A stretch of 33,600 bases of DNA from a virus. Below are positions 8,417 through 14,983 of this stretch, piece by piece. Position numbers and translations under genes: made by a program. The stretch is from UHGV virus genome UHGV-1067530; one strand, given 5' to 3'. Each line of letters opens with the position of its first letter. The first letter of the stretch is position 1. The notes beneath the pieces are model-generated. The model was given only the letters and a program-made list of their open reading frames with translations, did no database searches and was not told where the DNA came from.

Positions 8417-9832
8417 ATGAGCGAATTATTTAAACATGCGCACCTTCATGCAGGTCGAACTGAAAATGGTGCTGTAAACCATACTTCATCAATGTCTGCT
8501 CTTGTAGACTTTTACAAAGCTGCTGGTTCAAGCCGTAGCAACGTAGAAATCTTACCAGACCTGTTCTACAAAGCTTTGCGTGAGGATGTTGATGTTGCAG
8601 TTCGTATTTTACTGCATATGCGAGATGTACGAGAAGGTATTGGTGAGCGTAAAGCCTTCAGAACTGTTTTGCTTCAAGCAATTGAAGATAAAGTTTTAGA
8701 GCCTACACAGGTTCTTCGCATTATGGATAAGATTGCAGAACTTGGTCGTTTTGATGACTTCAAAATCTTCGTAGGTACTCGTTTCGAGACAGATGCCTTC
8801 AAACATTTAGAAGCAGCATTACTAGACCCTGCAACAGCAGGTTTGGCAGCCAAGTGGCTACCACGAGTCAAACCACGTCATAAGCAGTTTGTAAAACGTT
8901 TCTGTAAGTTTGCCAACTTGAGTGAGAAAGAGTATCGCACACTGTTGTCTGCGCTCTCTGATACAGTTGAGCAAAAAATCTCTGCTAATGAGTTTGGCAA
9001 GATTGACTACAGTAAGATTCCTTCACTTGCTGCTGCACGTTACCAAAAACTGTTTAACCGCAAAGATGGAGAACGCTACAAAGCTTACATCGAGTCCTTA
9101 TCAAAGGGTGAGACTAAGATTAATGCTGGTGCTGTTTACCCATACGATGTGATTAAGTCTGTTAAGTATGGTAATGCAGATGTTGCTAATGAGCAGTGGA
9201 AAGCACTACCAAACTGGATGGCAGAGGGTGAAAACATTCTCTGTATGTCTGATGTTTCACGTTCAATGTCTTGGGTGAATTTTGGCTCCATTACTACTCT
9301 GGATATTGGTGTATCACTTGCATTGTATGTAGCAGAACGCAATACAGGTTGCTTTAAAAATGAGTTAATGGTTTACTCAACAAACCCTCACTTCATCGAA
9401 CTGAGTGGTGATTTACGAAACCGTCATCGTCAGGTGATGCGGCACGTTGAATATGGCTCAACTAACTTACAAGCAGCTTTTGACCGTATTCTTGAGACAG
9501 GTAAAAGAAATAACTTGACTCAGAAAGATATGCCAAGTAAGCTTATCATCTTCTCAGATATGGAGTTCAATCAGGTTGATGGAGCTAACGGTCGCACAAA
9601 CTTTGAAGCAATCCAGAGTAAGTACAAGAAAGCTGGATACGAAATGCCACAACTGGTATTCTGGTACTTAGCAAACCGTAATGGTACTTGCGAAGTATCT
9701 GTTAAGGATAACGGTGTAGCAATGGTATCTGGTTTCTCTCCAGCCACTTTAAAAGCTCTGCTTGGTGGTGAGAAGTTTGACCCTATCAGCGTAATGCTCA
9801 AAGCAGTAATGATTGACCGTTATATCTGGTAA
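8417..9832 (+). CDS. vWA-domain protein with N-terminal alpha-helical domain; possibly Ro60/TROVE-like (DUF2828-type)
   Basis: MIDAS motif in ILCMSDVSRSMS (DxSxS), downstream YGSTNL (T) and LIIFSDMEF (D) at vWA-typical spacing; N-terminal ~270 aa has no motif I recognise; the TROVE assignment is inference. Confidence 0.55.
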   Translation: MSELFKHAHLHAGRTENGAVNHTSSMSALVDFYKAAGSSRSNVEILPDLFYKALREDVDVAVRILLHMRDVREGIGERKAFRTVLLQAIEDKVLEPTQVLRIMDKIAELGRFDDFKIFVGTRFETDAFKHLEAALLDPATAGLAAKWLPRVKPRHKQFVKRFCKFANLSEKEYRTLLSALSDTVEQKISANEFGKIDYSKIPSLAAARYQKLFNRKDGERYKAYIESLSKGETKINAGAVYPYDVIKSVKYGNADVANEQWKALPNWMAEGENILCMSDVSRSMSWVNFGSITTLDIGVSLALYVAERNTGCFKNELMVYSTNPHFIELSGDLRNRHRQVMRHVEYGSTNLQAAFDRILETGKRNNLTQKDMPSKLIIFSDMEFNQVDGANGRTNFEAIQSKYKKAGYEMPQLVFWYLANRNGTCEVSVKDNGVAMVSGFSPATLKALLGGEKFDPISVMLKAVMIDRYIW

Positions 9833-9997: not shown

Positions 9998-10074
9998 CTC
10001 TGTTTAGCTCAGCTTGGTAGAGCGTTCCGTTTGGGGCGGTAAGGCCGGAGGTTCAAGTCCTCCAACAGAGACCA
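9998..10074 (+). tRNA. tRNA-Pro (anticodon TGG)
   Basis: Acceptor CTCTGTT/AACAGAG, D-arm GCTC/GAGC, anticodon loop TTTGGGG, T-arm GGAGG-TTCAAGT-CCTCC, encoded CCA. Confidence 0.8.
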
Positions 10075-10081
10075 AATTAAT

Positions 10082-10159
10082 GTTCCAGTAGACAAAATGG
10101 TATAGTCACCACTCTTTCAAAGTGGATATTTGAGGGTTCAAATCCCTTCTGGAACGCCA
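10082..10159 (+). tRNA. tRNA-Glu (anticodon TTC)
   Basis: Acceptor GTTCCAG/CTGGAAC, anticodon stem CCACT/AGTGG, loop CTTTCAA, T-loop TTCAAAT, CCA. Confidence 0.8.
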
Positions 10160-10162
10160 GTT

Positions 10163-10239
10163 TTGACAGAAGACCAATTACAGCAAACTTAATCTTATTC
10201 ATCTGAAGGTAAATCGGACAAAGAAGAGATTTGGTCTGG
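10163..10239 (+). repeat. Inverted-repeat-bounded element, copy 1 (TTGACAGAAGACC-AA-TTACAGCAA ... TTGGTCTGG)
   Basis: 5' box CAGAAGACC + TTACAGCAA, 3' box GGTCTGG; termini AGACCAA/TTGGTCT are complementary. Confidence 0.6.
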
Positions 10240-10251
10240 TCATTAAGAATT

Positions 10252-10327
10252 GCGGGTATAGAGAAAGGGCGTCTCACATGTCTCATTAGCATGGTATCGG
10301 CAGGTTCGACTCCTGCACCCGCCTCCA
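10252..10327 (+). tRNA. tRNA-Met/Ile2-like (anticodon CAT), slightly irregular acceptor/T-stem register
   Basis: Acceptor GCGGGTA, D-arm GAGA/TCTC, anticodon stem CATGT/GCATG, loop CTCATTA, T-arm GCAGG-TTCGACT-CCTGC; 3' strand ACCCGCC pairs with a 1-nt offset. Confidence 0.5.
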
Positions 10328-10329
10328 AA

Positions 10330-10397
10330 TTTACAGAAGACCGTTTACAGCAATATTTATTAAATTTTTAGCGGAAAAATTGAAAGATGTGGTCTGG
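10330..10397 (+). repeat. Inverted-repeat-bounded element, copy 2 (TTTACAGAAGACCGTTTACAGCAA ... GGTCTGG)
   Basis: 5' 27 nt identical to copy 4; internal AT-rich hairpin AATTTTT/AAAAATT. Confidence 0.6.
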
Positions 10398-10410
10398 TAA
10401 TACTAAACAT

Positions 10411-10487
10411 GGTTAGGAAGCACATAAGGTATGTGCGGTCGCCTGTTAAGCGAATGGCACAGGGTTCGAATCCCTGACTAACCGCCA
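10411..10487 (+). tRNA. tRNA-Asn (anticodon GTT)
   Basis: Acceptor GGTTAGG/ACTAACC, D-arm GCAC/GTGC, anticodon loop CTGTTAA, T-arm CAGGG-TTCGAAT-CCCTG, discriminator G, CCA. Confidence 0.75.
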
Positions 10488-10556
10488 AATTTAGGAGAGA
10501 AGCGATTGCTCACCGATTTGTAAGGTGCAAGTCCTTAGCCTGAATAGAAATTAAAT

Positions 10557-10644
10557 GTGTCGTTATCCCGTAGATGGTAGCGGTGGGGACTGTAAATCCC
10601 TTGTCATTGAGACTCGGTAGGTTCGACTCCTACACGGCACACCA
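10557..10644 (+). tRNA. tRNA-Tyr (anticodon GTA), long variable arm
   Basis: Acceptor GTGTCGT/ACGGCAC, anticodon loop CTGTAAA, ~15-nt variable arm, T-arm GTAGG-TTCGACT-CCTAC, CCA. Confidence 0.7.
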
Positions 10645-10649
10645 ACAAA

Positions 10650-10727
10650 GGTTATGTAGTTTAATTTGGTTAAAATACTCCCCTGTCACGGGAGATGATG
10701 AGGGTTCAAATCCCTTCGTAACCGCCA
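10650..10727 (+). tRNA. tRNA-Asp (anticodon GTC)
   Basis: Acceptor GGTTATG/CGTAACC, anticodon stem CTCCC/GGGAG, loop CTGTCAC, T-loop TTCAAAT, CCA. Confidence 0.75.
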
Positions 10728-10788
10728 ATTTTGAGAGGGCTATTTAGCCCCTCCCTTAAAGAGTTCTTACGAGTATTCTTTAAAGGAG

Positions 10789-10862
10789 CAGAAGACCAAA
10801 TACAGCAAGTTACTTAAAATTTCAAGCCAATTTAATTTTGAAAAATTTAAAACTTGGTCTGG
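10789..10862 (+). repeat. Inverted-repeat-bounded element, copy 3 (CAGAAGACC-AAA-TACAGCAA ... TTGGTCTGG)
   Basis: Same terminal boxes; interior is a long AT-rich imperfect hairpin (CAAGTTACTTAAAATTTCAA / TTGAAAAATTTAAAACTTG). Confidence 0.6.
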
Positions 10863-10871
10863 CTCAACAAA

Positions 10872-11006
10872 TTTACAGAAGACCGTTTACAGCAAAACTT
10901 AAACAATCTATTTCTCGGTAAAGAAAAGGAGAAGGTTCGATTCCTTCACTCGGCAGGTGTCGAGTTGGTGTAATGGTAGCACTTAAGATGATAAACAACG
11001 GTCTGG
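10872..11006 (+). repeat. Inverted-repeat-bounded element, copy 4 (TTTACAGAAGACCGTT ... AACGGTCTGG), containing tRNA-like fragments
   Basis: 8-bp terminal complementarity AGACCGTT/AACGGTCT; interior holds a T-arm (GAAGG-TTCGATT-CCTTC) followed by a D-arm-like segment. Confidence 0.6.
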
Positions 11007-11007
11007 T

Positions 11008-11151
11008 AATTATCTTTGTAGATAAGTTATTAAGCTTACCTGTGAGTATGCGACCACAAAGGGTGAAAGGGTAAATTCTAGATTTAAACCCAAAAAGGCA
11101 CATCGCTACAGACCTTAAGCAAGTCTGGGTAGCTTATCTACAAAGATAATT
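11008..11151 (+). repeat. 19-bp perfect inverted repeat (AATTATCTTTGTAGATAAG / CTTATCTACAAAGATAATT) flanking 106 nt
   Basis: Read directly: 11008-11026 is the exact reverse complement of 11133-11151; the interior contains CAGACC...GTCTGG. Confidence 0.7.
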
Positions 11152-11155
11152 TAAT

Positions 11156-11231
11156 GGAAGTGTAGCAGAATGGTGATGCGGCAGACTTTTAATCTGACAG
11201 GCGATGGGTTCGAATCCCTCCACTTCTACCA
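11156..11231 (+). tRNA. tRNA-Lys (anticodon TTT)
   Basis: Acceptor GGAAGTG/CACTTCT (G1-U72 wobble), anticodon loop CTTTTAA, T-loop TTCGAAT, discriminator A, CCA. Confidence 0.7.
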
Positions 11232-11235
11232 ATAT

Positions 11236-11312
11236 GGTTCAGTCGCAGATAAGGTAATGCAAGGGTCTCATAAGCCCTATGAATGTGGGTTCGATTCCCA
11301 TCTGAACCTCCA
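11236..11312 (+). tRNA. tRNA-Met or Ile2 (anticodon CAT)
   Basis: Acceptor GGTTCAG/CTGAACC, anticodon stem AGGGT/GCCCT, loop CTCATAA, T-arm TGGG-TTCGATT-CCCA, CCA. Confidence 0.75.
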
Positions 11313-11314
11313 AT

Positions 11315-11389
11315 TGTGGGTTAGCATAAATGGTAATGCAAACGGCTGATAACCGTTAGAAGAGGGTTCGATACCCTCACCTACAACCA
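11315..11389 (+). tRNA. tRNA-Ile (anticodon GAT)
   Basis: Acceptor TGTGGGT/ACCTACA, D-arm GCA/TGC, anticodon stem AACGG/CCGTT, loop CTGATAA, T-arm GAGGG-TTCGATA-CCCTC, CCA. Confidence 0.75.
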
Positions 11390-11404
11390 ATTTCAATAAA
11401 GTTG

Positions 11405-11433
11405 TTGACATTGAGATGTGACTACTTTATAGT
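11405..11433 (+). promoter_or_regulatory. Putative sigma70-like promoter inside the tRNA array
   Basis: aaagttgTTGACA (11405-11410), 17-nt spacer, TATAGT (11428-11433). Confidence 0.45.
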
Positions 11434-11439
11434 AACTAA

Positions 11440-11726
11440 AATACTTCAGAATATGTATAATTCAAACACCAATACATGAGCGTTAGACGTAACACAATGT
11501 GGGGAAATTTGTTGTACATATTCTGAATAGTTTTCGTTGCGTAGCGTCTATTTTGCAAATTTAAAATAAATGCAAACGACAATGTTTTTCTGGCAGTAGC
11601 TTGATAGGCTAAACACCAGTGAGGTCTTCCAATCCCTCATCAAAGAATTTGGCGTACTAGCCCACGGTATGATTAATAAGGTGGGCATCTTTAAGGGCTT
11701 TCTAAGAGAGTCTTTAAAGATAATTA
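11440..11726 (+). ncRNA. Candidate structured non-coding RNA region (ORF-free, multiple hairpins)
   Basis: No ORF of 60 aa or more; 13-bp perfect inverted repeat TTCAGAATATGTA (11445-11457) / TACATATTCTGAA (11515-11527); hairpins GCCCAC...GTGGGC, TGAGG...CCTCA, TTTGCA...TGCAAA; sits downstream of the 11405 promoter. Confidence 0.35.
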
Positions 11727-11808
11727 CGGGGCGTATCTCAGCGGTCTTCTAAACCGCCGTTAACCGAGTAAGTGGAGTATGCGGGTTCGAGTCCTGCCGC
11801 CTCGACCA
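11727..11808 (+). tRNA. tRNA-like, Arg(TCT)-type anticodon arm, atypical (no canonical D-arm, 23-nt segment before the T-arm)
   Basis: Acceptor CGGGGCG/CGCCTCG, anticodon stem GCGGT/ACCGC with loop CTTCTAA, T-arm GCGGG-TTCGAGT-CCTGC, discriminator A, CCA; the D-arm 3' strand is not identifiable. Confidence 0.45.
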
Positions 11809-11950
11809 ATTAGTTAGCAGATTACTTAGACGACCTAAGCGGGTCTTCCTGTAGGGAGGTGGTCTGTATCTCATGTTTTCCAGAACATGTAAATAATCTG
11901 AGAAGGGGCTTTACAGTGTTGAGATAATACGGTAAGCTTCGAATTATAGT

Positions 11951-12033
11951 ATGGGACGATGTTAAGACTCTAAGGCATGAGCAACGGCTTCCAACACCGT
12001 TTCAAAGGGGTTCAACTCCTCCGTCCCATGCCA
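11951..12033 (+). tRNA. tRNA-like, Trp(CCA)-type anticodon loop, atypical (7 extra nt in the D region)
   Basis: Acceptor ATGGGAC/GTCCCAT perfect, hairpin ACGGC-TTCCAAC-ACCGT, T-arm AGGGG-TTCAACT-CCTCC, discriminator G, CCA; D region is 26 nt. Confidence 0.4.
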
Positions 12034-12046
12034 AAGTCTTATTAGG

Positions 12047-12134
12047 GGTAGGTAGCGGCTAATGGTAGCCAAACTGTCTTGAAAACAGTTGCCACTGTAG
12101 AGATACGGTGAGGGTTCGACTCCTTTACTTACCG
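12047..12134 (+). tRNA. tRNA-Ser (anticodon TGA), long variable arm; CCA not encoded
   Basis: Acceptor GGTAGGT/ACTTACC, anticodon stem ACTGT/ACAGT, loop CTTGAAA, ~20-nt variable arm, T-arm GAGGG-TTCGACT-CCTTT, discriminator G. Confidence 0.7.
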
Positions 12135-12137
12135 CCT

Positions 12138-12391
12138 AATAAGATTTAAAGCCAAGCTTCATTCGGATGTCGCTTTGGTATCCCGCGTGTATTGTCGTAC
12201 ACACTGATAAAACACCTAGTAGGTGTCACGGAGAAGAGATAATATCAAGCTCTCCAAAGGTTCTAGTCACCGGATTAAACAAGACTATGCAAAGACCTTT
12301 TTAGGTCTTTTTAGAGGGCTTCTAAGGTTATTACAGCTTGTTGTGGAACCTTGTTGCTTAGGTTCTTAGAAGTTCTCTAAAAAGATTTAAT
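12138..12391 (+). ncRNA. Candidate structured non-coding region (hairpins, terminator-like stem, long CTTCTAAG/CTTAGAAG hairpin)
   Basis: ORF-free; hairpins GTGTA...TACAC, ACACCTA...TAGGTGT, GGAGA...TCTCC; AAAGACC-TTTTT-AGGTCTTT followed by a T-run (about 12288-12312); inverted repeat CTTCTAAG (12320) / CTTAGAAG (12365). Confidence 0.3.
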
Positions 12392-12469
12392 GGGAGATTG
12401 ACGGTAATTGGTAAACCTACCATCCTTAGAAGTTGGTGTTTGAGGGTTCGAATCCCTTGTCTCCTACCA
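12392..12469 (+). tRNA. tRNA with Leu-type anticodon TAG but short (5-nt) variable loop
   Basis: Acceptor GGGAGAT/GTCTCCT, anticodon stem CCATC/GTTGG (one U-U), loop CTTAGAA, T-arm GAGGG-TTCGAAT-CCCTT, discriminator A, CCA. Confidence 0.55.
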
Positions 12470-12476
12470 AATTAAT

Positions 12477-12552
12477 GCAGGTGTAGCAAAATGGTTATGC
12501 GGCTGACTCTTAATCAGTAAGACGATGGGTTCAATTCCCTCCACCTGTACCA
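12477..12552 (+). tRNA. tRNA-Lys (anticodon CTT)
   Basis: Acceptor GCAGGTG/CACCTGT, anticodon stem GCTGA/TCAGT, loop CTCTTAA, T-loop TTCAATT, discriminator A, CCA; close paralog of the 11156 tRNA. Confidence 0.7.
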
Positions 12553-12558
12553 GACATT

Positions 12559-12634
12559 TGGGTCATAGTTTATATGGTTAAAATTCGAGTTTTGCAAACT
12601 TGGGAACTGAGTTCAATTCTCAGTGACTCCACCA
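12559..12634 (+). tRNA. tRNA-Ala (anticodon TGC)
   Basis: G3-U70 wobble present in the acceptor (TGGGTCA/TGACTCC), anticodon stem CGAGT/ACTTG, loop TTTGCAA, T-arm CTGAG-TTCAATT-CTCAG, discriminator A, CCA; 1-72 is unpaired (T/C). Confidence 0.7.
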
Positions 12635-12640
12635 ATTAGT

Positions 12641-12715
12641 GCATCCATAGTTTAAACGGGAAAATTACAGTCTTCCAAACTGAGGTTGAGGGTTCGATTC
12701 CCTCTGGATGCTCCA
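12641..12715 (+). tRNA. tRNA-Gly (anticodon TCC)
   Basis: Acceptor GCATCCA/TGGATGC perfect, anticodon loop CTTCCAA, T-arm GAGGG-TTCGATT-CCCTC, CCA. Confidence 0.75.
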
Positions 12716-12721
12716 AACAAT

Positions 12722-12798
12722 GCTGCTTTCGTATAATTGGCTATTACACATCCCTTGTAAGGATGGAAATGCAGGTTCGAGTCCTGTGAGCAGCACCA
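12722..12798 (+). tRNA. tRNA-Thr (anticodon TGT)
   Basis: Acceptor GCTGCTT/GAGCAGC, anticodon stem CATCC/GGATG, loop CTTGTAA, T-arm GCAGG-TTCGAGT-CCTGT, discriminator A, CCA. Confidence 0.8.
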
Positions 12799-12799
12799 A

Positions 12800-12893
12800 T
12801 TCAGAGGTCAAGTGAAAGACCGCTGGTGTCAACTGAAGACCGTAACAAATTCCACGGAGTTGAGTTAGCGGCACAACTTCAGACCTCTTTCAC
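12800..12893 (+). repeat. Repeat/palindrome-rich spacer related to the CAGAAGACC element family
   Basis: CTGAAGACCGTAACA (12836-) resembles the 5' box; AGAGGTC...GACCTCT and CTGAAG...CTTCAG inverted repeats. Confidence 0.4.
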
Positions 12894-12968
12894 ACTCGCT
12901 TAGTTTATATGGTAAAACATCACCCTTACAAGATGAAGAAAAAGGTTCAAGTCCTTTAGTGAGTACCA
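12894..12968 (+). tRNA. tRNA-Val (anticodon TAC)
   Basis: Acceptor ACTCGCT/AGTGAGT, D-stem GTTT, anticodon loop CTTACAA, T-arm AAAGG-TTCAAGT-CCTTT, discriminator A, CCA. Confidence 0.65.
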
Positions 12969-12969
12969 T

Positions 12970-13047
12970 GTTCCAGTATCCCAATTGGCAGAGGATGCAA
13001 GCTCAAACCTTGTATTAGTGACGGTTCGAATCCGTCTTGGAACACCA
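12970..13047 (+). tRNA. tRNA with Leu-type anticodon CAA but short (6-nt) variable loop
   Basis: Acceptor GTTCCAG/TTGGAAC, D-loop AATTGGCAGAG, anticodon stem TGCAAG/CTTGTA with loop CTCAAAC, T-arm GACGG-TTCGAAT-CCGTC, discriminator A, CCA. Confidence 0.55.
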
Positions 13048-13065
13048 ATTTAAAGAGGCTATTTA

Positions 13066-13623
13066 ATGAGATATTTGAAGTATGCTTCATGGATTTTCTT
13101 AGCTTTACTAGACCCAATTGCAGCAATCCTAGCAGTTATCTTAGCACCTTTCGTAGTTCCATTCTACAGTGAGAAGAAAGGACATCTACCTTTTGGATTC
13201 AGATGGATGGAGACCTATGACAACCCGATTGATGGTGACGAAGGTCACGTTAAAAGATGGGCTAAGATTAGAAAGATTGGTAAGCTGGGTGTCTACATGC
13301 AGAGAGTTGGGTGGCTCTGGAGAAACAAAGCTTATAACTTCTCTTACCATGTATTAGGAAGAGATGTAAAAGATGTTACTAAGTGGAGAGGTAATATCAA
13401 CGTAAGTTCTGACCCTGAAGATAATCAGACTGGTTATCTCCTAATGTGGAACAACAATGCTTGGGGATTATTCGCTTTTATTCCGTCAATTAAAGTCTTT
13501 GGTAAACAGTTTTACTGGAGAATTTATGTTGGATGGAAACTAAAAAGTGTTGTCCCAGAAGAAAGAGCATTCTCAAGGGAAAGAGTTATGTTGGCATTCT
13601 TTATTCATCCACTGAGAAAGTAA
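13066..13623 (+). CDS. hypothetical membrane protein (185 aa) embedded in the tRNA array
   Basis: ORF with RBS aaagagg upstream; N-terminal hydrophobic helix WIFLALLDPIAAILAVILAPFVVPF; Trp/Arg-rich remainder. Confidence 0.6.
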   Translation: MRYLKYASWIFLALLDPIAAILAVILAPFVVPFYSEKKGHLPFGFRWMETYDNPIDGDEGHVKRWAKIRKIGKLGVYMQRVGWLWRNKAYNFSYHVLGRDVKDVTKWRGNINVSSDPEDNQTGYLLMWNNNAWGLFAFIPSIKVFGKQFYWRIYVGWKLKSVVPEERAFSRERVMLAFFIHPLRK

Positions 13624-13631
13624 AGATTTAA

Positions 13632-13707
13632 AGGGGATTAGTTTACAAGGTTAAAACCTCGGTCTTTGAAATCGAAGAAGTTGGTTCAATTCCAACATCC
13701 CCCGCCA
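13632..13707 (+). tRNA. tRNA-Gln (anticodon TTG)
   Basis: Acceptor AGGGGAT/ATCCCCC with unpaired 1-72, discriminator G, anticodon stem TCGGT/ATCGA, loop CTTTGAA, T-arm GTTGG-TTCAATT-CCAAC, CCA. Confidence 0.7.
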
Positions 13708-13709
13708 AT

Positions 13710-13788
13710 GCTCCATTACTCCAATTGGCAGAGAGGCCAGACTTAAAATCTGTGTTATGTATCGGTTCGAATCCGATATGGAGTACCA
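13710..13788 (+). tRNA. tRNA with Leu-type anticodon TAA but short (7-nt) variable loop
   Basis: Acceptor GCTCCAT/ATGGAGT, D-loop AATTGGCAGAG, anticodon stem CCAGA/TCTGT, loop CTTAAAA, T-arm ATCGG-TTCGAAT-CCGAT, discriminator A, CCA. Confidence 0.55.
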
Positions 13789-13793
13789 ATTTT

Positions 13794-13869
13794 AGCGGTA
13801 TAGCATAACTGGCAATGCAGCAGTCTCTGAAGCTGTCCTATTAAGGTTCAAATCCTTATGCCGCTGCCA
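13794..13869 (+). tRNA. tRNA-Gln (anticodon CTG)
   Basis: Acceptor AGCGGTA/TGCCGCT, D-arm GCAT/ATGC, anticodon loop CTCTGAA, T-arm TAAGG-TTCAAAT-CCTTA, discriminator G, CCA. Confidence 0.7.
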
Positions 13870-13900
13870 CTTCTAAGGGTTCTTACGAGAGTCCTTAAAT

Positions 13901-13976
13901 GTGGCCTTATCATAAACGGTAATGACCCATGCTGTGAACATGGTCTATACGGGTTCAAATCCCGTAGGTCACCCCA
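13901..13976 (+). tRNA. tRNA-His (anticodon GTG)
   Basis: Acceptor GTGGCCT/AGGTCAC, D-arm TCAT/ATGA, anticodon stem CCATG/CATGG, loop CTGTGAA, T-arm ACGGG-TTCAAAT-CCCGT, discriminator C, CCA; position -1 is T, not G. Confidence 0.8.
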
Positions 13977-13981
13977 ATTTA

Positions 13982-14058
13982 TAGTCCAAGTAGCTTATAT
14001 GGTTAAAGCGCGTGTCTGAAAAACATGAGAAGAGGGTTCAAATCCCACTGGACTACCA
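13982..14058 (+). tRNA. tRNA-Phe (anticodon GAA), acceptor register slightly irregular
   Basis: D-arm GCTT/AAGC, anticodon stem CGTGT/ACATG, loop CTGAAAA, T-loop TTCAAAT; acceptor TAGTCCA/TGGACTA pairs perfectly but leaves a 4-nt linker before the D-stem. Confidence 0.6.
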
Positions 14059-14074
14059 ATTTCAAAGGTGCTTA

Positions 14075-14809
14075 ATGAAAGAGATGACAGGACAAGGTAA
14101 GGAGATTTTTAATCTCTTAAAAACCGGTAAAGGGTTTTCTAACCCACTTATTACTGGTGCAGCAGTTCTCGGTGGAACCGTAGCTGCCTCTACATCACTT
14201 GTAAGCTCTATTAGCTCTGTAACAGACCCGACAATGAATGAGAAACTTGTTGCTGCTGGACTTACAACAGTCCTTCTAAACAGCTTTACAACAAGCCTGA
14301 CAAGCACTACAGCAACTACTAAGACCCTAACAGACTATGGTCAAAAGTCTATTGATGAGTTTTCATCACGTATGCAGGTAGCAAAGGGGTATTCCAATGT
14401 TATGGGTGCAGCAGGAGAACAAGTTGGTTGTACACCATTCAGTGGTATTATGGGTGTTGCTACAGAGTATGGTCAAAAAGCTATTGACATGATTAACAGC
14501 ACACTAGACAGTGTTAACGGTGTGTTAAGTGACTTACAAGACGCTATTGATAAGGGTCTTGATACTGTTTCTGATTTAGCTAATCAAGCTGTTAGCAAGA
14601 TTAATGAAGGTATCTCAAAGATTACAGCTTATGCAGATGAAGTTGTGCAGATGATTGAAGAAGAAGCTGCCCTTATTGCAGAGTACCTTAAAACGAATAT
14701 CAATGGGTTCTTAGCAGGTATCTTACCAGACTGGTTTGATGATGCTCGCAAAACTGGTGTAATCGACACTATTGCAACACCAGAAATGAAGAACGCATTA
14801 CAGAAATAA
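14075..14809 (+). CDS. hypothetical Ser/Thr-rich protein (244 aa)
   Basis: The ORF track starts at 14012 inside tRNA-Phe; first ATG with an upstream aaagg RBS is 14075 (MKEMTGQ...); S/T-rich N-half, helical C-half. Confidence 0.55.
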   Translation: MKEMTGQGKEIFNLLKTGKGFSNPLITGAAVLGGTVAASTSLVSSISSVTDPTMNEKLVAAGLTTVLLNSFTTSLTSTTATTKTLTDYGQKSIDEFSSRMQVAKGYSNVMGAAGEQVGCTPFSGIMGVATEYGQKAIDMINSTLDSVNGVLSDLQDAIDKGLDTVSDLANQAVSKINEGISKITAYADEVVQMIEEEAALIAEYLKTNINGFLAGILPDWFDDARKTGVIDTIATPEMKNALQK

Positions 14810-14810
14810 T

Positions 14811-14903
14811 GGAAGATTAACCCTAAAAGGTAAGGGAGCAGTTTGCTAAACTGCCAGTAGCTGAGAAATCGGTGTACCAGTTCAAGTCTGGTATCTTCCT
14901 CCA
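14811..14903 (+). tRNA. tRNA-Ser (anticodon GCT), long variable arm
   Basis: Acceptor GGAAGAT/ATCTTCC perfect, D-stem CCC/GGG, anticodon stem GCAGT/ACTGC, loop TTGCTAA, ~20-nt variable arm, T-arm ACCAG-TTCAAGT-CTGGT, CCA. Confidence 0.8.
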
Positions 14904-14907
14904 ATCT

Positions 14908-14983
14908 GAATCCGTGACAGAAATGGATATGTGCCTGTCTGCAAAACAGGTTTATAAGGGTTCAAGTCCCTTCGGATTCTCCA
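14908..14983 (+). tRNA. tRNA-Cys (anticodon GCA)
   Basis: Acceptor GAATCCG/CGGATTC perfect, anticodon stem CCTGT/ACAGG, loop CTGCAAA, T-arm AAGGG-TTCAAGT-CCCTT, discriminator T, CCA. Confidence 0.8.

Follow-up and report, generated by a model that had tools for sequence, protein, structure and literature searches.

The tRNA array of Salmonella phage Mushroom (Felixounavirus) contains a probable non-canonical tRNA-Trp(CCA) gene of 83 nt (11951-12033, plus strand, encoded 3′ CCA included), which raises the question of whether so irregular a cloverleaf could supply tryptophan to phage translation or whether its tRNA-like form has another role. The window, that is the whole stretch of DNA analysed, comprises 33,600 nt. 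An earlier note, made from the sequence alone, had described a perfect acceptor stem (ATGGGAC/GTCCCAT), the presence of a T arm and CCA, a gap of 26 nt between the acceptor and the anticodon stem, and a total length of 83 nt with a short variable loop. Direct reading of the sequence bears out this description, with seven acceptor pairs, the T arm at 12006-12022, an encoded CCA at 12031-12033 and a variable region of 5 nt (Table 1). The probable 8/4 geometry, the invariance of an insert, the taxonomic spread of the element and the Ro60-like gene located upstream go beyond it.

In the acceptor, anticodon and T arms the element agrees with a canonical tRNA. The acceptor consists of 7 bp, a discriminator base and a CCA end; the anticodon arm has a loop of the form YUCCAAM with U33 and a purine at position 37, position 31:39 being occupied by a conserved C.A mismatch; and the T arm, GGGG-UUCAACU-CCUC, has the expected UUCRANY loop. 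Drawn in the 7/5 form, the T arm becomes (A)GGGG-TTCAACT-CCTC(C), with an A.C mismatch at the stem base and one G.U pair. The D region is not canonical. The spacing from acceptor to anticodon stem is 19 nt in E. coli tRNA-Trp (sequence checked), so the element carries an excess of ~7 nt, and 9-10 nt stand before the covarying 3-bp D helix in place of the canonical 2-nt connector. The D-loop GG, equivalent to G18 and G19, is present and invariant in 17 sequences; equivalents of U8 and A14 are not obvious in the element sequence. The minimum-free-energy fold of the element is this same cloverleaf. A protein-coding explanation was rejected, the ORFs crossing the element being just 22 and 36 aa in length, with none longer.

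Table 1. Positions of the parts of the element and of neighbouring features in the window.
Feature	Position	Strand	Remarks
Ro60/TROVE-vWA-like RNA-binding protein, 471 aa	8417-9832	+	Counterpart of Bas63 gp130; possible partner by context
Sigma-70-like promoter TTGACA-17-TATAGT	11405-11433	+	11/12 matches; consensus scan only
Weaker promoter-like site	11919-11947	+	Consensus scan only
Acceptor stem, 5′ strand ATGGGAC	11951-11957	+	Seven perfect pairs with GTCCCAT 12023-12029
Junction/insert GAUGUUAAG region	11958-11967	+	Between acceptor stem and covarying D helix
D hairpin	11968-11981	+	Stem CTC 11968-11970 / GAG 11979-11981; loop TAAGGCAT 11971-11978
Extended anticodon arm	11983-12001	+	Watson-Crick 26:44 = A11983:T12001; stem ACGG/CCGT; loop TTCCAAC 11989-11995
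Anticodon arm ACGGC-TTCCAAC-ACCGT	11984-12000	+	Read from sequence
C31.A39 mismatch closing anticodon stem	11988/11996	+	Conserved
Anticodon CCA (Trp, reads UGG)	11991-11993	+	Invariant in 17/17 sequences; major TrpRS identity element (PMC12135181)
Short variable region TCAAA, 5 nt	12002-12006	+	Invariant in 17-sequence alignment
T arm	12007-12021	+	Stem GGGG/CCTC (4 bp, one G.U); T loop TTCAACT
C65	12022	+	Mismatched with A49 (7/5) or Watson-Crick with G8 (8/4, preferred)
Acceptor 3′ strand GTCCCAT and 3′ end	12023-12033	+	G73 12030; encoded CCA 12031-12033, then A

Detection of the element depended on the search model. ARAGORN in standard mode made no Trp call on it, even with thresholds lowered to 60-80%, nor did the intron mode, the lowered-threshold and intron runs yielding only spurious overlapping calls. 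The mitochondrial (-mt) mode calls the native sequence Trp(cca), a result which, together with the covariation in all four helices presented below, supports the earlier assignment to a Trp(CCA)-type tRNA-like gene. Deletion in silico of any 6 nt at positions 9-19 results in a standard ARAGORN tRNA-Trp(cca) call, in keeping with the D-region expansion of about 7 nt that had also been proposed. RF00005 was not listed for the element in Rfam scans at the gathering score or at E ≤ 10, and the best match within the tRNA clan, the tRNA-Sec model RF01852, reached 16.9 bits compared with a gathering score of 47. Low covariance-model scores were one half of what the earlier note had held would speak against a tRNA, and this half was indeed observed; the comparative evidence carries more weight, as does the finding that the element corresponds to the sole amino acid for which the array has a gap. 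The covariance model of the family itself (R1) scores 110 bits on the element, finds one copy per genome and aligns ordinary tRNAs end to end, canonical Trp tRNAs lying near the top at ~35 bits. Combined, the deletion result and the R1 alignment suggest that the element is a canonical tRNA plus an insertion. Rejection by covariance models and the conserved C.A in the anticodon stem count against the tRNA-Trp assignment. The element is a concrete blind spot of ARAGORN and Rfam and probably of tRNAscan-SE as well.

The same deletions bear on the idea that the extra 6-8 nt are excised after transcription, in the manner of a tiny intron, leaving a canonical 77-nt tRNA-Trp. Standard software accepts the product of removing any 6 nt from this stretch, the insert shows the invariance that a recognition site might have, and in related or analogous phages RNA-repair enzymes are found by annotated product name alone, PNK in phiEa21-4 and, close to Ro60-like genes elsewhere, RtcB and Rnl2. 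The segment is, however, far too small for a group I intron, the sequence has no bulge-helix-bulge motif, and a ligase or endonuclease gene was not identified in the window. We know of no bacterial or phage mechanism for cutting a 6-nt segment out of a D arm, which further counts against excision, and we regard it as extremely unlikely.

The element is a real RNA under selection, far beyond chance. It is found in 236 Ounavirinae records, once in each genome, a tRNA being annotated there in 0/236, and is distributed among Felixounavirus, Mooglevirus, Suspvirus and Pectobacterium/Yersinia phages as well as metagenomes. BLAST with the divergent Pectobacterium version returned the same 236 records and nothing further, a 3′-half-only pattern in viral contigs returned only loci already found, and the cellular genomes searched for homologues gave 0 matches. 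Several metagenome matches proved to be ordinary genes for tRNA-Trp or tRNA-Gly whose leader contained GATGTTAAG by chance, and were discarded. Pair counting over 17 distinct sequences indicated that 98.5% of cells are paired and that 9/19 pairs have changed on both sides (controls: both-side changes ≤1 in all slid controls; 0/500 shuffles), and RNAalifold independently recovers the same cloverleaf from the 17 homologues. Compensatory double changes are observed in all four helices and in at least five lineages. In divergent lineages both partners of acceptor pairs 1:72 (AU to GC) and 2:71 (UA to CG) are replaced, the D stem exists in the compensated variants CTC/GAG, CAC/GTG, CAT/GTG and CGT/ACG, four of the five anticodon-stem pairs have changed on both sides, and T-stem pair 50:64 goes from G-C to U-A in Mooglevirus. 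The 26:44 pair is AU in 9 sequences, GC in 6 and GU in 2. While all four stems vary, alignment columns 4-16, and with them the insert GAUGUUAAG, are invariant in 17/17 sequences, and so are the anticodon CCA, G73, the CCA end, the variable region and the UUC.A core of the T loop. Sequences sharing the invariant insert, anticodon, G73 and CCA differ elsewhere by up to ~25%. With one mismatch allowed, GATGTTAAGA occurs 9 times in the window compared with 3.5 expected; the copies outside the element are all inexact and lie dispersed over coding regions, and the motif was rejected as a repeated binding site.

A dead tRNA-Trp pseudogene, bearing a D-region insertion and carried passively in the array, would account for the failures in ARAGORN standard mode and Rfam and for the three conserved A.C/C.A mismatches of the 7/5 drawing. 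It would also account for the defects seen in some lineages, namely a bulged U in the acceptor stem of the Pectobacterium/Yersinia phages, two acceptor-stem mismatches in metagenomic L060 and T-stem mismatches in contigs L034 and L041; pseudo-tRNAs have been described in phage arrays (PMC3185647). The covariation strongly disfavours a pseudogene, however; pairing would be lost from a gene in decay. The spread of the compensatory changes over helices and lineages, the invariance of insert, anticodon, G73 and CCA against a background of ~25% divergence, the retention of a single copy in 236 genomes and the lack of a functional Trp gene beside the element argue in the same direction, making passive carriage exceedingly improbable. 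The imperfect acceptor stems of two divergent lineages count against a role as tRNA-Trp, as charging could suffer there even though the remainder of the molecule is conserved; the T-stem mismatches of the two contigs count against it as well.

The extra nucleotides are probably accommodated in an 8/4 cloverleaf with a 6-nt bulge in the D stem, which appears to be the likeliest and most parsimonious geometry. In this preferred drawing, an 8-bp acceptor stem, in which G8 (G11958) would pair with C65 (C12022), is combined with a 4-bp T stem. AT would form a 2-nt connector, the D stem would consist of G11961:C11982, the bulge UUAAGA and then three pairs, and no spacer would precede an anticodon stem of six layers (26:44, four Watson-Crick pairs and C31.A39), followed by the 5-nt variable region. 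G8, A49 and C65 are invariant in 17/17 sequences, so that G8:C65 is Watson-Crick throughout whereas the 7/5 form would need a conserved A49.C65 mismatch, and RNAalifold picks G8:C65. As the eighth pair never varies, covariation within the element does not prove the 8/4 form; in the adjacent downstream tRNA-Ser(UGA), 8:65 covaries from A-U to G-C while 49:65 becomes A.C. The bulge of this drawing, TTAAGA with 6 nt in the window, would comprise 8 nt in the phages of Pectobacterium/Yersinia. The outer D helix that ARAGORN draws after the deletions, TGTT/AGCA, was rejected because its pair 13:33 is broken in 6/17 sequences, exactly where the inner helix CTC/GAG shows compensated changes. From these patterns we infer the 8/4 and bulge geometry and, with it, a rearranged tertiary core which the invariant insert and the invariant variable region together would build. 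A characterised functional precedent for a 9-nt junction between acceptor and D helix was not found in the literature; 8/4 tRNAs as such are known in phages (PMC5389517).

With respect to amino acid identity, the TrpRS elements established in E. coli are the anticodon CCA and G73, with A1:U72 and G5:C68 as minor elements, and the contacts described for the enzyme involve the anticodon and acceptor arm only (PMC12135181), so that charging should not be hindered by the expanded hinge. The window element has every published TrpRS identity element of E. coli. Among the 17 sequences G5:C68 is constant, while 1:72 is A:U in 11, as in the window, G.U in 4 and G:C in 2. In arrays with 25-26 standard tRNAs, Trp is the sole amino acid missing among standard calls, and a canonical Trp call is found in 0/56 element-bearing loci. 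The 3′ end, GCCA-A, is like that of the array in general, where 23/24 ARAGORN-called tRNAs encode CCA, mostly followed by A. The outgroup Erwinia phage phiEa21-4 (Kolesnikvirus) has a canonical 76-nt tRNA-Trp and lacks the element; the two genes have in common a 15-nt anticodon-arm core, CGGCCUCCAAAACCG, C31.A39 included.

We consider it probable that the element is a functional non-canonical tRNA-Trp(CCA) gene. We infer that it would be transcribed with the phage tRNA array and that its ends would be processed like those of its neighbours, the CCA being encoded. Host TrpRS, whose recognition is confined to the anticodon CCA and the acceptor end (G73, A1:U72, G5:C68), would charge it with tryptophan, and on the ribosome the charged molecule would decode UGG, giving the phage a tRNA for all 20 amino acids. 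In PhageMaP the annotated Bas63 tRNAs are mostly non-essential (PMC11482910), so any benefit of the element would be conditional. The stronger promoter-like site in Table 1 could drive a unit formed by an Arg-like gene, the element and tRNA-Ser, which is suggestive only, as the total number of such sites is no higher than in shuffles.

A functional tRNA-Trp with a remodelled hinge might in addition read UGA, as a natural analogue of the Hirsh suppressor. That suppressor is an E. coli tRNA-Trp altered at position 24 or 9 in such a way that UGA is read, and suppressor mutations of tRNA-Trp map to the acceptor/D hinge, where the expansion of the element (positions 8-13) sits, a coincidence that counts for UGA reading. 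Against it, TGA is an ordinary stop in 7/43 window genes, in-frame extensions past TGA amount to just 0-12 codons, no gene pair is joined through TGA, and there is no positive evidence; we judge UGA decoding very unlikely. Programmed UGA readthrough was likewise rejected, neither stop-codon usage nor extensions past TGA giving a signal in the 43 window genes.

The main rival to a tRNA-Trp stems from the Ro60-like gene upstream, the counterpart of Bas63 gp130. The gene ends 2.1 kb before the element on the same strand and directly upstream of the tRNA array. Its 471-aa product contains DUF2828 and DUF7788 and falls in PHROG 850 ('RNA-binding protein'). Its AF2 model has a pLDDT of 89.9 and the top 12 PDB fold matches are all Ro60; a PDB sequence search with the protein found nothing, the Ro60 likeness being seen through fold comparison only. 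Bas63 gp130 counters Ppl (PMC11482910). The element could thus be a tRNA mimic operating outside translation, a Y-RNA-like ligand of the Ro60-like protein or a decoy for it, although we think this unlikely. A terminal 5′-3′ stem together with the invariant unpaired C-G-A-U-G-U-U-A-A-G would dock with the Ro60 ring, and the body resembling a tRNA would, in the manner of Y RNAs, either recruit a host factor or block one, contributing to the anti-Ppl role of Bas63 gp130.

Several observations are consistent with such a mimic in addition to the fold of the upstream product. Bacterial and phage Y RNAs adjoin Ro60 genes and mimic tRNA (PMC4201824; PMC12135203), and in the PhageMaP study it is speculated that gp130 has Y RNAs among the Bas63 'tRNAs' (PMC11482910). 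The insert is invariant while all stems drift, acceptor-stem defects are tolerated in divergent lineages, and neither the Ro60-like gene nor the element is present in phiEa21-4. The Ro60-like family, however, occurs in 710 phage records, most without the element, and the co-occurrence of gene and element amounts to a single phylogenetic contrast. The insert starts GACGAUG at the inner end of the 5′-3′ stem, one mismatch from the YrlA motif GNCGAAN0-1G, but the CGAA is inexact, a one-mismatch match is expected by chance, and exact matches to the motif in the array region lie inside ORFs only. No Rfam Y RNA family matches the region at E ≤ 5, and none was found near the Ro60-like gene here or near five other phage Ro60-like genes. 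YrlA-type RNAs have a closed 'acceptor' and ends located in the Ro-binding stem (PMC4201824), whereas the element is a cloverleaf without permutation, open at its ends, whose anticodon arm is complete and covaries. Nor would a mimic need a CCA anticodon, G73, A1:U72, G5:C68, a CCA end or correspondence to the sole amino acid that the array lacks. A protein-binding role would also fit the strict invariance of the insert and the co-occurrence with the Ro60-like gene, which to that extent count against a role as tRNA-Trp.

The two roles might be combined, a chargeable tRNA-Trp carrying its invariant extra loop (CGAU-GUUAAG), located where the terminal stem ends on its inner side, as a docking handle for the Ro60-like protein, a bifunctional element that we regard as rather improbable. 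If it were so, the element would be the long-sought Y-RNA-like partner of gp130, tying an irregular tRNA to anti-Ppl counter-defence and, more broadly, to the repeated association of Ro60-like genes and tRNA clusters across hundreds of phages. In Bas63 the element sits at about 83846-83928 of record MZ501086, in an unannotated gap between bas63_0143 and bas63_0144, and in the genome-wide knockout screen of this phage guides were designed per annotated gene (PMC11482910), so the element was very probably missed. Together with the adjacent odd Arg-like gene at 11727-11808, it provides the first candidates for an RNA partner of the Ro60-like anti-Ppl factor gp130.

Should the element be a Trp tRNA, Felix O1-like phages would own a complete 20-amino-acid tRNA set. 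This bears on the idea that phage arrays free translation from a host tRNA pool that may be destroyed by the phage or by tRNA-cleaving defences of the host, in a group of phages, Felix O1 and its relatives, that serve as classic typing, biocontrol and BASEL-collection models. As a working tRNA, its invariant hinge insertion of 6-8 nt, probably within an 8/4 frame, would widen the known range of cloverleaves and could offer a natural scaffold for engineered or orthogonal tRNAs.

Among known systems, the element resembles E. coli trpT in the CCA anticodon, G73, A1:U72, G5:C68, a 7-nt anticodon loop, the D-loop GG, the T-loop UUCRA, a short variable region and the CCA end, and the anticodon loop of most relatives, CUCCAAA, is that of E. 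coli tRNA-Trp. Compared with canonical tRNA-Trp, it has a D stem in which only 3 pairs covary, Watson-Crick pairing at 26:44 and an acceptor branch that is probably 8/4 rather than 7/5, and it fails RF00005 and standard ARAGORN. The window lineage has U32/C38 where canonical tRNA-Trp has C32/A38, which removes the A36-A37-A38 context used by MiaA. Deviant mitochondrial tRNAs, the target class of ARAGORN -mt, are like the element found only under relaxed D-arm rules; the element differs from them in deviating by expansion and not by loss, in its fully canonical T arm and elbow nucleotides, and in belonging to a phage of enterobacteria. YrlA-type Y RNAs resemble it in being encoded close to a Ro60-like gene, in having D and T arms like those of a tRNA, and in a terminal stem made by the 5′ and 3′ ends with a conserved unpaired segment after it, while the Y-RNA-like units of mycobacteriophages look quite different. 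The (8/4) tRNAs of Mukai et al. 2017 (tRNA-Ser, tRNA-His, selC* tRNA-Cys and allo-tRNAs; PMC5389517) have a 12-bp acceptor branch, like that of the element, which can be divided as 8 + 4, and a lengthened anticodon stem abutting the D arm, and they occur in phage tRNA clusters beside other irregular tRNAs. The text of that paper contains no Trp member (0 occurrences of 'Trp'), and the allo-tRNAs described in it have a long variable arm and a long D stem with a tetraloop, compared with 5 nt and with 3 bp and an 8-nt loop in the element. The invariant 6-8-nt bulge or extended connector is an extra feature with respect to (8/4) tRNAs, for which the 'E-loop' (8/4) tRNA mentioned there (PMC5389517) could be a precedent, and the tRNA-Ser(UGA) directly downstream of the element is itself 8/4.

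Direct reading of the element (11951-12033) upheld the anatomy described in the earlier note. The element is an 83-nt gene with a fully paired acceptor stem (ATGGGAC/GTCCCAT), CCA in the anticodon loop TTCCAAC, a T arm (AGGGG-TTCAACT-CCTCC), G73 and CCA both encoded, a short variable region (UCAAA) and 26 nt between the acceptor and anticodon stems. The same interval is 19 nt in E. coli tRNA-Trp, so the claimed D-region expansion of ∼7 nt is also borne out; across 5,426 genomes this reference is matched at 100% identity by a gene annotated as tRNA-Trp, which is single-copy (a median of one place in each genome). The minimum-free-energy fold is the cloverleaf formed by these stems, with a weak 3-bp D helix, and only ORFs of 22 and 36 aa overlap the element. 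The covariance-model scoring previously proposed as a check was negative: the Rfam general tRNA model lists nothing even at E<=10, and the best Rfam score is 16.9 bits, obtained with the tRNA-Sec model (gathering score 47). The element is called neither by ARAGORN in standard mode nor by Rfam at gathering score, carries no depositor annotation in any phage record examined and escapes all standard tools. ARAGORN in mitochondrial mode calls it Trp(cca), and its standard mode calls tRNA-Trp once any 6 nt within positions 9-19 are removed in silico. That the insert is excised after transcription is considered extremely improbable, as to our knowledge no mechanism for removing such an insert has been described.

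Salmonella phage Mushroom (KP143762), a Felixounavirus of the Ounavirinae, matches a 1-kb stretch around the element at 100% identity. The element belongs to a tRNA array in which ARAGORN counts 24 tRNAs and Rfam, at gathering score, 23. In favour of a working tRNA, the element ends in GCCA followed by A, as its array neighbours do, and a strong promoter-like site of matching orientation is found upstream, a consensus-scan result that is suggestive only. The tRNA-Met(CAT) and tRNA-Tyr(GTA) genes are ARAGORN calls below the Rfam tRNA gathering score, and for the latter, which the Mushroom record marks as pseudo, the tRNA-Sec model gives the better alignment (29.6 bits); thus several tRNAs of the array are irregular, not one. 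The Arg(UCU)-loop gene has ∼4 nt in place of the D arm and a variable region of ∼20 nt, scores 31.7 bits, just over the Rfam tRNA threshold, and shows a weak alignment with the tmRNA model; ARAGORN does not call it. Conservation is 95-100% within a Felixounavirus subset, and the Mushroom array has no other Arg candidate; in other lineages the slot holds a tRNA-Arg(TCT) of normal form that looks unrelated. The hairpin near tRNA-Leu(TAG) came to light through a spurious match to a plant microRNA precursor (MIR473, 32.7 bits, E 5e-5); it may serve in processing or termination, or be a further small RNA.

Positions of the element, its neighbours and related features in other phages
Feature	Position	Strand	Description
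Element, 5' half	from 11951	+	ATGGGAC-GATGTTAAGA-CTC-TAAGGCAT-GAG-C-A-ACGGC-TTCCAAC-ACCGT (direct reading)
Element, 3' half	to 12033	+	TTCAA-AGGGG-TTCAACT-CCTCC-GTCCCAT-G-CCA (direct reading)
Ro60-like gene	8417-9832	+	471 aa, directly upstream of array; DUF2828+DUF7788; PHROG 'RNA-binding protein'
tRNA array	9998-14983	+	dense
tRNA-Met(CAT)	10251-10327	+	
tRNA-Tyr(GTA)	10557-10644	+	
Arg(UCU)-loop tRNA-like gene	11727-11808	+	7-bp acceptor stem, T arm, encoded CCA
tRNA-Ser(UGA)	12047-12136	+	directly downstream of element
Hairpin	12297-12396	+	long, near-perfect, directly upstream of tRNA-Leu(TAG)
Irregular tRNA-like sequence, phage phiEa21-4	L069:23959-24044		unannotated
Y-RNA-like units, Mycobacterium phage Rumpelstiltskin	L074:5440-5720		three, in tandem
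ROOL RNA match, Listeria phage LMSP-25	L075:2428-2979		near-threshold

Homologues of the element occur in 236 phage records, exclusively Ounavirinae, and the cellular genomes searched gave no matches. Copies in Felixounavirus, Mooglevirus and Suspvirus range in identity from 100% down to about 86%, whereas those of Pectobacterium/Yersinia phages are at about 76%. Pattern scans of viral and metagenomic contigs yielded further copies, including divergent versions on three metagenomic contigs (L040, L047, L060), each occupying the same position, flanked by tRNA-Arg(TCT) and tRNA-Ser(TGA). When 17 distinct sequences were aligned with MAFFT and scored on an explicit cloverleaf, standard pairs filled 98.5% of pair cells and two-sided changes were observed at 9 of the 19 pairs, a count that is slightly conservative because MAFFT mis-registers one D-stem pair of L060. 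Slid structures gave at most one two-sided change, and none of 500 shuffles reached the observed values. The D helix appears as CTC/GAG, CAC/GTG, CAT/GTG or CGT/ACG and the anticodon stem as ACGG/CCGT, TAAG/CTTA, TAGG/CCTA or CTTG/CAAG; T-stem pair 50:64 changes from G-C to U-A, acceptor pairs 1:72 and 2:71 from AU,UA to GC,CG, and 26:44 is Watson-Crick and covarying (AU 9, GC 6, GU 2). RNAalifold returned the same fold when no structure was supplied. Irregularities also occur: in the Pectobacterium/Yersinia version a U bulges from the 3' side of the acceptor stem, L060 has two acceptor mismatches, and two contigs (L034, L041) have T-stem mismatches. A covariance model of the family finds one match per genome at 88-113 bits, its other matches being ordinary tRNAs, aligned end-to-end at <=38 bits, with canonical Trp tRNAs near the top (∼35 bits). 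Judged from these alignments, the element belongs to the tRNA superfamily and is a structured RNA under selection; it does not match by chance. Decay to a pseudogene is contradicted by the helix covariation and is regarded as highly improbable.

The interpretation in the earlier note, a tRNA-like gene with a Trp(CCA)-type loop, is upheld as well. The most fitting description of the element is a non-canonical tRNA-Trp(CCA) that had so far escaped annotation. It is conserved in four Ounavirinae lineages, and we consider it likely to be functional as such. Trp alone among the amino acids lacks a call in the fullest arrays (25-26 standard tRNAs), and a canonical Trp gene is present at none of 56 element-bearing loci; Felix O1 is listed with 22 tRNAs, Trp being unmentioned (PMC3185647). 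Major identity elements for E. coli TrpRS are the anticodon and G73, with A1:U72 and G5:C68 as minor ones, and contacts in the TrpRS-tRNA structure are described for the anticodon and acceptor arm only (PMC12135181); the window element carries all four identity elements. It would be transcribed, processed, charged and used in decoding, completing the tRNA set of well-studied phages. In the window lineage the anticodon loop (11989-11995) is UUCCAAC (U32, C38), most relatives and E. coli having CUCCAAA, and intermediate loops with U32/A38 are present among relatives. C38 abolishes the A36-A37-A38 context required for MiaA modification of A37, and such anticodon-loop changes have been proposed to let phage tRNAs evade anticodon nucleases. 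A Hirsh-like tRNA-Trp variant reading UGA is very unlikely, as stop codon usage in the window (TAA 33, TGA 7, TAG 3) lends it no support and in-frame extensions past TGA span only 0-12 codons.

The element also adjoins a Ro60-like counter-defence gene. The encoded protein has a MIDAS D-x-S-x-S motif (D279/S281/S283), and the best 12 PDB matches of a model built from 49 aligned homologues (pLDDT 89.9, pTM 0.89) are all Ro60/TROVE proteins, aligned over the full length; the model thus predicts a Ro60/TROVE-vWA-like protein. Homologues occur in 710 phage records, those of mycobacteriophages being annotated 'Ro-like RNA binding protein', and in unrelated phages the gene is often found beside tRNA clusters and RNA ligases. 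The ROOL match of phage LMSP-25 (88.5 bits, gathering 99.1, E 1.6e-16) is flanked by a tRNA cluster and by the DUF2828 (Ro60-like) gene of that phage, and an RtcB ligase follows further downstream. In Bas63 (JohannRWettstein, MZ501086, Felixounavirus) the element region matches the window at 100% identity. The Ro60-like gene has its counterpart there in gp130, shown by experiment to counter the Ppl defence system; its authors speculated that some Bas63 'tRNAs' are Y RNAs (PMC11482910). There the element occupies an unannotated gap between bas63_0143 and bas63_0144 and, since the guides of the Bas63 knockout screen were designed per annotated gene, was very probably not targeted.

Y RNAs are tRNA-mimicking Ro60 partners encoded beside Ro60 genes and are recognised via their terminal 5'-3' stem, which carries a CGAA-type motif (PMC4201824, PMC12135203). 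A non-decoding, Y-RNA-like mimic, the main alternative to a tRNA-Trp, would fit the Ro60-like gene directly upstream of the array, the invariant junction GACGAUG, one mismatch from GNCGAAN0-1G, and Erwinia phage phiEa21-4, which is without both gene and element. However, this co-occurrence is one phylogenetic contrast. The cloverleaf of the element is open-ended and not permuted, its anticodon arm is complete and covaries, and every TrpRS identity element is in place. Rfam Y RNA families have no match near the window Ro60-like gene or five other phage ones, no non-coding part of the array contains the motif in exact form, and the Y-RNA-like units of phage Rumpelstiltskin look unlike the element. 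Such a mimic is therefore unlikely, and a dual-function tRNA combining decoding with a Y-RNA-like role is distinctly so. The Rumpelstiltskin units, just downstream of a Ro-like gene, have terminal GUGGAC...GUCCAG stems and a common CUAACAGCAA segment, the middle one with a permuted tRNA-like module; Rfam detected none of the three at E<=0.01.

Alignment columns 4-16 (GGACGATGTTAAG) are invariant while every helix varies, as are the variable region UCAAA, D-loop GG, T-loop UUC.A, CCA anticodon, G73 and CCA end. An alternative D helix via the insert (TGTT/AGCA) was rejected, being broken in 6 of 17 sequences, exactly where the inner helix is compensated. Drawn with a 7-bp acceptor and 5-bp T stem, the element has three conserved mismatches (A10.C25, C31.A39, A49.C65), two of which would be removed by G8:C65, giving 8-bp acceptor and 4-bp T stems (8/4), and by G11961:C11982, which would open the D stem ahead of a 6-nt bulge (UUAAGA). 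All 17 sequences have Watson-Crick bases at both pairs, and RNAalifold selects G8:C65; as neither pair ever varies, proof does not come from the element itself. In 13 variants of the downstream tRNA-Ser(UGA), 8:65 changes on both sides from A-U to G-C while 49:65 goes from G.U to A.C, and this gene scores 39 bits on the tRNA-Sec model vs 33 on the tRNA model; it is therefore an 8/4 tRNA. Its D stem is 5 bp long and capped by a tetraloop, its anticodon stem is 6 bp long, and alone among the array tRNAs it lacks an encoded CCA. The paper on the 8/4 class lists Ser, His, Cys and Sec members, phage ones included, but none for Trp (PMC5389517). Membership of the neighbouring tRNA-Ser(UGA) supports the same geometry indirectly, and the element is probably an 8/4 tRNA whose acceptor/D hinge carries an invariant expansion of 6-8 nt.

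Function as a tRNA-Trp is also favoured by phage phiEa21-4, of the outgroup genus Kolesnikvirus, which has no copy of the element and carries a canonical 76-nt tRNA-Trp between Gly and Thr. The irregular tRNA-like sequence of this phage, in a 418-nt gap between tRNA-Arg and tRNA-Leu, has acceptor-like AGTGATT/AATCACT and T arm GAGAGGTTCGAATCCTT, and matches the family model weakly (21 bits). In the window, tRNA-Gly(TCC) and tRNA-Thr(TGT) are adjacent with a 6-nt gap (12715-12722), which suggests loss of Trp from this site in lineages with the expanded element elsewhere. The canonical tRNA-Trp of phiEa21-4 and the element have in common the anticodon-arm core CGGCCUCCAAAACCG, including the unusual C31.A39.
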